From Carcharhinus longimanus (Eukaryota), in the NCBI GenBank assembly GCA_030264375.1, contig JASCQW010000154.1:4107011-4170873 (forward strand): a stretch of DNA of 63,863 nucleotides, in the 5' to 3' direction. This document shows positions 1 through 37,278 of the stretch, one piece after another. How positions within the stretch are numbered: position 1 is the stretch's first letter; every line of letters begins with the position of its first letter. A program made the translations under genes and the position numbers. The notes beneath the pieces are model-generated. The model had not been told where the DNA came from and made no database searches. It saw nothing but the letters and a program-made list of their open reading frames with translations.

Positions 1-246
1 TGGATCACCGGTTCTTCTCTCTCACCAACCCCCCAACACCACCCCCCCCCCCACCCCGCCTCCCCCAAATAAAGCAATTCACGTATACAGTAGACTTGTC
101 TCACAATTAAAACTTAAGGACCAGTTTCTTCTTGTATTGTTTTTAAAACAGCCTTTTCTTCTGCACATGCTAATTTGGAGAAAGCAATCTTATAAATACA
201 ACAGAGACGTAAACAATAACACAATCTAAAACAGCTAAAGCTTAAA

Positions 247-268
247 TAGGCAGCTTCATGTTGTCGGG
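247..268 (-). promoter_or_regulatory. miR-196 full-length complementary target site in the HoxB8 3' UTR
   Basis: mRNA-sense CCCGACAACATGAAGCTGCCTA pairs with all 22 nt of the miR-196 encoded at 17152-17173: 19 Watson-Crick and 3 G:U pairs. HOXB8 is the established miR-196 cleavage target. Confidence 0.92.
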
Positions 269-339
269 AGTTTTCTTTAAGCTAATGGTCATTAGCTGAA
301 ATAGTGCATACAGCTTAAATATTCTACAGCAGTATTTCA

Positions 340-371
340 ACACACACACACGCACACACACACACATACAC
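340..371. repeat. (CA)n microsatellite in HoxB8 3' UTR
   Basis: Visible imperfect CA run (acacacacacacgcacacacacacacatacac). Confidence 0.85.
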
Positions 372-649
372 ATTAGGACATTGATCTATGAACTTTACAT
401 TTAAATACTTTTACAAGAATCCACTTGAAACAACTACAGGGCTACACAACCACATGAATACATCTGGTAAAAAGTTGGGATACTCGTTTTAATCTACACC
501 TCCATACATTTGCATACAATATTGTGTATCAAACAGTAATCGGTAAAATTTGTTCTGCTTCTCACACCCGCACTGTTAAAAACTGTCTACATGATTCTAT
601 TCATACCCCCTCGGGTTGACGTTTTATGTTTTAAATTAGTTTTTTATTA

Positions 650-927
650 TTAATCTTTTTCTTCGTCTTCTTTTACTTCCTTTTCCTTTGGAGTTTCTTC
701 TATTTCGGACTTGCTGCTGGGAAACTTGTCTTTGTTATTTTCCTTCTTCCATTTCATTCTTCTGTTCTGGAACCAAATTTTGACCTGCCTCTCGGTCAGT
801 CCCAGAGCGTGTGACACTTCGATCCGCCGTTTGCGAGTCAGGTATGGATTGAACAAAAATTCTTTTTCAAGTTCTAGTGTCTGATAGCGACTGTATGTTT
901 GTCTTCCCCTGCGCCGTCCTGCAGCTA
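650..927 (-). CDS. hoxb8: Homeobox protein Hox-B8, coding exon 2 (homeodomain)
   Basis: Polypyrimidine tract then TAG acceptor. Reads (V)[72 protein letters not shown]..., with TAA at 652-650. Spliced CDS is 705 nt (234 aa). A second in-frame acceptor would start the exon at 924. Confidence 0.95.
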
Positions 928-1083
928 CTAGGGAAGAGAGGGAGGAGAAAGAGAGAGGTGGGGGTGGGGGGGGGGGGGCACCAAGAAAGAAAGCTCAATG
1001 AGGCTCTGTAGTTTTTAGGCGAAGGGTTCTAAAACAAGATTTAAACACTATTAAACAGTATTCAACACCGTAGGAAAAATACG

Positions 1084-1230
1084 CCATAAAACTGCAATAA
1101 AACTACAAACAGCATGCAATATACTACACTTCAAAAACCGCTCCAGGATCATTAAAGTATAAAGTAATTTACAAGTACTGAACTTTACAATCATAAAACA
1201 CTAAAGTTTCAAAGTTTCCTTTATTGGCTC
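1084..1230. promoter_or_regulatory. Cluster of Cdx/posterior-Hox-type sites in the HoxB8 intron
   Basis: CCATAAAA, GCAATAAAA, TCATAAAA and TTTATTGG occur within about 150 bp. Function is inferred. Confidence 0.45.
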
Positions 1231-1333
1231 AGGAAATGAACCTTTCTGCGTTTTAAATGTATGTGTGTGTTTTTTAATCCCTCTCCTTTCTGACGGCCTC
1301 TTTATTTCTTGCTGGCCCGTGTCAAAACCTCAC

Positions 1334-1760
1334 CTTGCGGTCTCATCCACGGGAACAGCTGTGTTGGAGATGAACTCTGTTCTGAATTCTCTGCTTCTTC
1401 TCCTAGGCTATTCGCCGTCGACTTGCAGTCGGGATATTGGATCAGTTCGGCCTCTTGCTGGGCGGCGAAAATTGGCTGTCTTTGCAGGGCATCGTAGCTG
1501 TAGAAACTGCCGGCATCCCCGTGACACGTCACCGCACACGGATTTTGTTGGTACGCGGAGGTGGAGAGGGTAGCAGCGCCGTGGTGGTAAAAATCCGGGA
1601 TCTGGCTGGGATGTTGGAAGCTGCCCCCGGTGCCGGGTCCATAAACCACGGTGGGTCTGCCGCTCAGATCCTGGGTGAACCCACAGTCATAATAATTGGG
1701 GCGCAGAGTCTCCCCACTTTTATACTTGGAAAACAGCGAATTCACAAAGTAGGAGCTCAT
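1334..1760 (-). CDS. hoxb8: Homeobox protein Hox-B8, coding exon 1 (427 nt, phase 1 donor)
   Basis: [31 protein letters not shown]...[14 protein letters not shown] closely matches the vertebrate HOXB8 N-terminus and hexapeptide (LFPWMR). Donor is CAAG|GTGAGG at 1334/1333. Confidence 0.96.
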
Positions 1761-17104: not shown

Positions 17105-17188
17105 AACTGGAGTAATTCAGGCAGTTTCTTGTCACTGCGATCAAACAGAATCCCAACAACATGAAACTACCTAAGTCACACAACAGTT
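17105..17188 (-). ncRNA. mir196: microRNA miR-196 precursor; mature 5p arm at 17173-17152
   Basis: Exact mature miR-196a sequence TAGGTAGTTTCATGTTGTTGGG. Complementary 3p arm CAGTGACAAGAAACTGCCTGA (17137-17117) and basal stem AACTG/CAGTT. Canonical position between Hox9 and Hox10 on the Hox strand. Confidence 0.97.
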
Positions 17189-35800: not shown

Positions 35801-37278
35801 NNNNNNNNNNNNNNNNNNNNNNNNNNNNNNNNNNNNNNNNNNNNNNNNNNNNNNNNTACAACATCCACCAAAGTTCGATTAACATAAAGATAACGAGCAG
35901 AATTATCATAATTAGCAGATTAACCTGAAATGAATCAGTCCTTTAATTGTGAATAATACTGGCAGCAATATTGAGATTAACATTTACTTTCGTCCTTCTT
36001 TTCAACGAAGATGGTGAATTCTACACTTGAAATTATAACTGAAACAAGATATTTCTTGCAGAGCGGATCATCTGCAATACAATATCAGGCAGAATGTTGA
36101 GCGTGTTTATTTTTTCGATGCTTTTCTTCAAAAAACACATTCTGTAATCAGTCTCGAAAATTAAACATATTAAAAAATATAGAAAGTTTGTGTAAAATCA
36201 AACTTTGTTGAAAAACTTGAAACTACTCCCCATGCCAGGGATCGGAAACAAACATTAGAACCCCAATAGAGCAGCTGAAAATCAAACAGTTGATTATAAA
36301 TTGGAGCATTGTTTGTAAACAGCGCAAATCAGCAGCAAATTAGGCGAAACTTATCTAACCAAACATATAACAAGATACCTGGACGCTGGTTTTAAAGTTA
36401 GGAATCTAAAATAACGAGCTTGGGAGTTCTATCATCGGGTGTTAGCAAAACACCTTACTGAAATGGAAGATAGAAGCCAAATCAACGCAGTTCGTAGAAC
36501 ATTTGCTCAGTTGCGATATTTGCTGTTCTTTCTGTGACAAGGTGGAATTGCGGAACTAAAAATCAAAGTGGGGGTGAATGCTAAGCAGGAGGCCCCGGGG
36601 AATTATACTACTGCGCGAGAATTCTGAAAATGCAGTGAAGGAGTTAGAGTCCGATATAAAGGCAGCAGGGTTCTGATTTCCCGAGGTATCTGGATTTTCT
36701 GGTTTGCTGGCTGCCAGTAATTTGTCTGATGTGTTATTCCCGCCCTGGCGTGCATCAATCTCCCGTTTCAATTTAATAAAAGCTTCAATAATCCACACAG
36801 GGCCCAAAACATTACGTCCAAGAATCCCTCTCTCGCCAGAGGTAACCTCTGACTACCAGAAACGTGCAGTCACTCACCTGTCAGATTGTTACGGTCTGTT
36901 TAGAGGTTTCCCCCAGACACTCATTTGTTGCTTTAGTGCAGCATTTCTCCAACCCCTCAATGACCATGGGCCGTAGGCGCTGTGCTCGTTTCCTCTCGCC
37001 GTTCGAATGCCCGCTGCAGAGTTGATAGCACAGTGCATAATATTACTGCTATTAGGGCTTGACGCTGATTGCGCCACCCTGCGCATTATGCAGATTTCCT
37101 GCCGTTACTGTTAAGCTTTTCAAAAGAACGCTTCGGCTTGTACAGGCGGCTGTTGTATTTATACGAAGTCGGTGCGGTGTGTACTTTCCGCCTCGTTTAA
37201 TCAGTGGGATTTATGCCAAGGAAGGTACATTTCAAAATGAGTCGTTAACATGTTATTAAAGATCAGTGAAATCTAACT

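Follow-up and report, generated by a model that had tools for sequence, protein, structure and literature searches.

An orthologue of the mammalian miR-196 target site, with two additional G:U wobbles, in the HoxB8 3' UTR of Carcharhinus longimanus

The analysed DNA of Carcharhinus longimanus, 63,863 nucleotides in full (the window, to which all plain positions refer), begins with a minus-strand Hox cluster whose homeoboxes belong to paralogue groups 10, 9 and 8. The group 8 gene, HoxB8, consists of an exon 1 coding part (1334..1760, minus strand), a 406-nt GT..AG intron (928..1333, minus strand) and an exon 2 coding part with the homeobox (650..927, minus strand), which ends in a stop codon at 652-650. 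Both exons were predicted from their open reading frames. The homologues of exon 1 are named Hox-B8 or Hox-B8a, and its donor is confirmed by a spliced transcript contig (X9), the joint of which skips the 406 nt. The exon 1 protein shares 96% identity with a shark protein named Hox-B8a and 91% with a chimaera protein, while the remaining 118 of the 120 listed matches share 77% or less. Of the 3' UTR, the part 78..649 (minus strand) is covered by the same contig, X9 record 21, which extends from exon 1 through the joint as far as position 78. A tandem splice acceptor lies at 924-930 on the minus strand, with exon 2 starting at 927 or 924; the X9 contig uses the first acceptor, and the distal exon of another contig (X13) appears to be joined to the second.

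A pre-miR-196 hairpin (17109..17182, minus strand) was identified between HoxB10 and HoxB9 by Rfam model RF00256 (69.3 bits, E 3.7e-14), with a predicted fold of -30.6 kcal/mol. Its mature 5p strand, a 22-mer, lies at 17173-17152. Three miR-196 genes are present in the genome assembly G000, and their mature sequences are identical in all three. A pattern with C allowed at positions 5, 8 and 19 and one mismatch retrieved no other hairpin from G000, which is a gapped assembly. A compensating miR-196 paralogue was therefore rejected, since the three genes share one mature sequence and none restores the Watson-Crick pairs discussed below. A fifth pattern match (L010, 20/22) lies in repeat-rich DNA without a homeobox and was treated as chance. 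The third miR-196 gene (L003, G000:C95:39258-39333) has no Hox motif within 1.5 kb. It may be a remnant of the HoxC cluster.

The miR-196 target site (247..268, minus strand) is situated in the HoxB8 3' UTR, 382 nt 3' of the stop codon and 17 kb from its cognate miR-196 gene. It pairs with the mature miRNA through 19 Watson-Crick pairs and three U:G wobbles at miRNA nt 5 (window 251), 8 (254) and 19 (265), with no hard mismatch. Each difference is a T>C change on the plus strand, so that a U of the miRNA faces a G of the mRNA. Recomputation confirmed the original prediction that the site departs from a perfect complement at these three positions only, always as A-to-G in the mRNA, that nt 9-18, including nt 9-12, are entirely Watson-Crick, and that the register of pairing puts the predicted AGO2 cut, opposite miRNA nt 10/11, at 256..257 (minus strand). 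The further statement that two of the wobbles lie in the seed holds for position 5, in the core seed (2-7), and not for position 8, which belongs to the extended seed (2-8) and falls outside the 2-7 seed as defined in PMC8940178. With the wobble at 5, the site lacks a Watson-Crick match to nt 2-7 and is not a canonical seed site. Strict seed matching indeed misses it, as had been claimed, but this is no shark peculiarity: the human HOXB8 site is missed too, being flagged only by a slicing rule and not by a seed match (scanMiR preprint). As written, that rule should flag the shark site as possible slicing.

On the target strand of the window, 247-268 is the sole match of this kind; the next best has seven differences. 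In one UTR of this composition, about 1e-8 matches with no hard mismatch and at most three wobbles are expected by chance. Window 1-649 contains no canonical miR-196 seed site (6mer or better), so 247-268 is the only visible miR-196 input to that part of the UTR. Local accessibility of the site is mixed (97th percentile for nt 2-5, 40th for nt 2-9). An RNA structure presenting the site was considered and is unsupported, with folds scoring z +0.45 and -0.70 against shuffles. In the mRNA, a perfect 7-bp mini-hairpin (280-297) precedes the site by 11 nt, in a region that folds no better than shuffled sequences. Target-directed miRNA degradation was judged unlikely, as the site has no central mismatch.

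Transcript contigs from four of the 24 listed runs (organisms B, C, D and E) were compared with the window. Contigs of all four runs cover the site without a listed difference. X9 record 21, from a close relative, lacks the intron and ends 169 nt beyond the site. The site is thus carried on spliced RNA. An AATAAA directly 3' of the stop codon (643..648, minus strand) is a possible proximal poly(A) signal. It must be read through at least in part because the spliced contig continues beyond the site, although partial use could give a short isoform without it. Within 290-890 nt of exon 2 plus UTR, the four runs show only 0-2 differences from G000, so their agreement over the site says little about selection. 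Transitions make up four of the five clear differences between G000 and the runs, or five of six if one doubtful difference is counted.

Metagenomes were scanned with a pattern in which positions 5, 8 and 19 were left free and the other 19 were fixed, a design by which mismatches elsewhere are not detectable. Of the four loci retrieved, three are miR-196 hairpins and the fourth, L013, is a vertebrate HoxB8 exon 2 with its UTR. The L013 site contains only the position-5 wobble and has the same register and flanking bases as the shark site. The two sites are identical at 20 of 22 positions, whereas no other stretches of the two UTRs match at more than 15/22 and the UTRs are unalignable outside the site. 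This comparison relies on one outgroup copy, the exon 2 of which is frame-shifted, reflecting either an assembly error or a pseudogene. The L013 UTR also has a 6mer miR-196 seed match. The human HOXB8 site likewise has a G:U wobble at position 5 (PMC2373929; scanMiR preprint), in agreement with the original prediction, and the miR-196/HOXB8 interaction has been described as conserved among vertebrates (PMC10772731).

Judged by these comparisons, 247-268 is the orthologue of the mammalian miR-196a site described in 2004 (Yekta, Shih and Bartel 2004, via PMC2373929, PMC10772731, PMC3394115 and the scanMiR preprint). It resembles that site in gene, near-full complementarity and the G:U at 5, and the two systems further share a miRNA of the same family encoded in cis upstream of Hox9 and Watson-Crick pairing across the scissile bond. 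The shark site differs in having two more U:G wobbles, at 8 and 19, and in coming from a cartilaginous fish, with cleavage that is predicted. The position-5 wobble is old, being shared with L013 and human, which leaves two informative changes (8 and 19) and not three. Long-term conservation of near-full complementarity is shown. A report of the miR-196/HoxB8 site in a shark was not found by title or abstract, although fish alignments may be present in the figures of the primary papers; in the part considered here, PMC2746220 deals with HoxA7 sites only. This is thus a known and ancient regulatory site, and what is new is a shark variant with two extra wobbles.

The original prediction held that selection had preserved duplex geometry for slicing and not seed matching. 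The wobble-only pattern fails to show this. Eighteen of the 22 nt of miR-196 are U or G (10 U and 8 G), and 17 of the 21 positions from 2 to 22 keep pairing after one particular change, which is always a transition. The probability that two random changes both keep pairing is 0.07, 0.16, 0.29, 0.36 and 0.45 at transition weights of 1, 2, 4, 6 and 10, respectively. The probability that both keep pairing and also avoid nt 9-18 is 0.02-0.12 (0.04-0.12 at kappa 2-10), the interval 9-18 having been chosen post hoc. The predicted duplex energy is nearly unchanged, at -36.1 against -36.4 kcal/mol, and just 1.0% of 1890 double changes (3.8% when transition-weighted) are as mild by nearest-neighbour energy. 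Such energies, however, predict AGO2 binding poorly, worst of all for U:G: in 3' pairing, a miRNA-U:target-G wobble disrupted binding as much as a typical mismatch did, and a wobble in the seed (2-7) costs about 3 kcal/mol, like any mismatch (PMC8940178). That all 22 positions still pair does not therefore amount to equal function.

The strong form of the geometry argument, in which only G:U wobbles have been admitted since slicing needs an unbroken helix, and in which the shark site is sliced as well as the mammalian one, is accordingly unlikely. Both changes do keep pairing, avoid nt 9-18 and rank among the mildest 1-4% of double changes. Against this, there are only two events, with a probability of 0.16-0.45 from mutation bias alone, the energy scale is least reliable for exactly this pair, and the near-identical runs add little independent evidence. 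The pattern is compatible with selection on geometry without showing it. For the wobbles at 8 and 19, the best reading is of transitions likely tolerated because they flank the 9-18 core, while purifying selection, in the explanation we favour, acts on near-full complementarity as a whole.

In that explanation, which we consider probable, the site is the shark orthologue of the known target, miR-196-AGO2 likely binds it and likely cuts between 256 and 257, and does so probably more slowly than in mammals. The site, its orthology, its presence on spliced contigs, the three identical miR-196 genes and a human-type AGO2 PIWI exon were observed; co-expression, binding and cleavage are inferred. 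The posterior embryo would make miR-196, which would guide AGO2 to the HoxB8 site; weak seed binding would be offset by pairing at nt 9-22, and the cut mRNA would be lost, clearing HoxB8 from posterior tissue. For mouse and chick, such clearance of HoxB8 from posterior tissue by miR-196 is on record (PMC3394115). Slicing survives partial seed mismatches as long as central and 3' pairing are intact; for miR-124, a g8 mismatch is tolerated when nt 3-7 are intact, and a 7-8 double mismatch is still sliced with strong 3' pairing (bioRxiv 2025.03.03.641270). Unlike those g8-tolerant targets, the shark site does not have nt 3-7 intact, owing to the wobble at 5. Slicing by miR-196a is slow (tau 5.4 min), and with miR-196a.M1, which has the same weak centre, a 16-bp target was sliced 250-fold more slowly than the full one (PMC11100590), a hint that the wobble at 19 is costly. 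A weak centre (UUCA), together with the requirement of that variant for pairing beyond nt 16, would account for the retention of all 22 nt and not of the seed alone. As a U:G pair costs about as much as a mismatch, and each defect in the 2-7 seed about 3 kcal/mol, the combined effect of the three wobbles could be to leave the site too weak for useful slicing.

No better placed than the strong geometry argument, and thus also unlikely, is a mainly 3'-compensatory mode, in which any AGO would bind through nt 9-22 and repress through deadenylation and translational silencing, with the mRNA seldom cut. The site has the seed defect and extensive 3' pairing that define the 3'-compensatory class, with the seed broken at 5 and 8 and nt 9-18 and 20-22 Watson-Crick. 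It resembles the 3'-compensatory and compound sites of PMC8940178 and bioRxiv 2025.03.03.641270, in which an imperfect seed is offset by long 3' pairing, and 3' pairing alone represses reporters (bioRxiv 2025.03.03.641270). The slow slicing of miR-196a also fits, as does the finding that only about 6% of reads in A549 cells lie at the slice site (bioRxiv 2025.09.30.679503). Mice with catalytically dead AGO2 are described as free of skeletal patterning defects (bioRxiv 2025.04.02.646793), so the function under selection may be something other than slicing. Set against these points, the shark site differs from 3'-compensatory sites in its zero offset and its unbroken, perfect pairing at 9-12, which such sites do not need and which make it a candidate slicing substrate; moreover, cleavage of the mammalian HOXB8 orthologue is documented (PMC10772731; bioRxiv 2025.09.30.679503).

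Cleavage of the HoxB8 mRNA would also depend on a competent Argonaute. An AGO2-type PIWI exon (G000:C99:59407094-59407300) is identical to human AGO2 614-679 at 64 of 66 residues. It keeps E637, F666 and D669, and we take 637 and 666 to be the positions that are substituted in teleost AGO2. In teleosts, AGO2 slices poorly owing to two PIWI substitutions (PMC7765534). The exon with H807 was not found in G000, the exon with D597 was not assignable to that gene, and seven stretches of C99 (69 kb) contained no flanking AGO2 exons. Beyond a three-gene cluster on C146, Argonaute exons sit on C99, C105 and C72, indicating either a scattered AGO2 assembly or extra copies. A pre-miR-451 (L060, G000:C139:3890531-3890601) is present and lends weak support to the slicing machinery. 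In its predicted fold, the G at position 6 is unpaired and position 13 is mismatched as well.

A more far-reaching combination is unlikely: a wobble-only rule outside nt 9-18 across jawed vertebrates, imposed by selection on AGO2 slicing and not on the seed, acting on a site that descends from a miR-196 precursor as a fossil fragment of it, with the position-5 wobble taken from the passenger arm and the CpG at 19 possibly ancestral. A passenger-arm G lies opposite U5 in all five miR-196 hairpins counted (17109-17182, L001, L003, L011 and L014; L012 repeats the L011 hairpin and was left out). The wobble at 19 creates a CpG (265-266), and the mammal-type base there is the expected product of CpG decay, so the shark state could be ancestral. 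The flank of the HoxB8 site matches the miR-196 gene on C95 (L003) for 6 bases beyond the mature end. The site may have arisen as a passenger-arm copy, for which the one supporting observation is the shared G at 5, or as an inverted 5p copy, which fits the flank equally and for which the one supporting observation is the 6 extra matching bases. No RF00256 match was found in 120-420 up to E 10, folding around the site is not better than in shuffles (z -0.47 to -0.70), and the best candidate for a decayed second arm nearby, at 10/22, equals background. With no model match, hairpin or second arm, the site itself was rejected as a miRNA gene or antisense miRNA. A report of the passenger-arm idea was not found by title or abstract.

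Finally, that the site is decaying, or is excluded from the mRNA by the poly(A) signal beside the stop codon, is very improbable: it carries two more defects than the mammalian site and the AATAAA is there (648-643), but the 22-mer is conserved at 20 positions amid an otherwise unalignable UTR, each of the four runs has contigs that extend across the signal region or over the site, including a spliced one, and a CpG persists within the site.

The site places the best-known animal miRNA slicing site in a cartilaginous fish, and hence in the last common ancestor of jawed vertebrates. It also provides a naturally occurring variant with two wobbles, from a lineage in which the AGO2 exon examined resembles the human one. 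Wobble-only change, if found in many lineages, would be rare comparative evidence that selection at an endogenous animal target acts on slicing and not on seed binding. Two changes within a single lineage are a lead and not a result.

Further features of the cluster concern miR-196 and HoxB8. A single X13 contig joins HoxB8 exon 2 at 924 to the 3' end of a distant upstream exon (36878..36907, minus strand); its 28-nt loose end has a unique exact match there, with a canonical donor next to it. The skipped 36 kb contain HoxB10, miR-196 and HoxB9, which suggests, from this one contig, a transcript that would carry miR-196 in an intron plus its own target site. No open ATG frame starting within 520 nt reaches the donor of the distant exon. 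Polycistronic miR-196/HOXB8 transcripts in human (PMC1831499 Table 1; PMC2148072) similarly hold miRNA and target on one primary transcript, whereas the shark case consists of one contig and its skipped part includes HoxB10. No canonical miR-196 8mer occurs within 1.5 kb behind HoxB5, B6, B9 or B10. The HoxB7 3' UTR (L004) has one, about 103 nt behind the stop codon.
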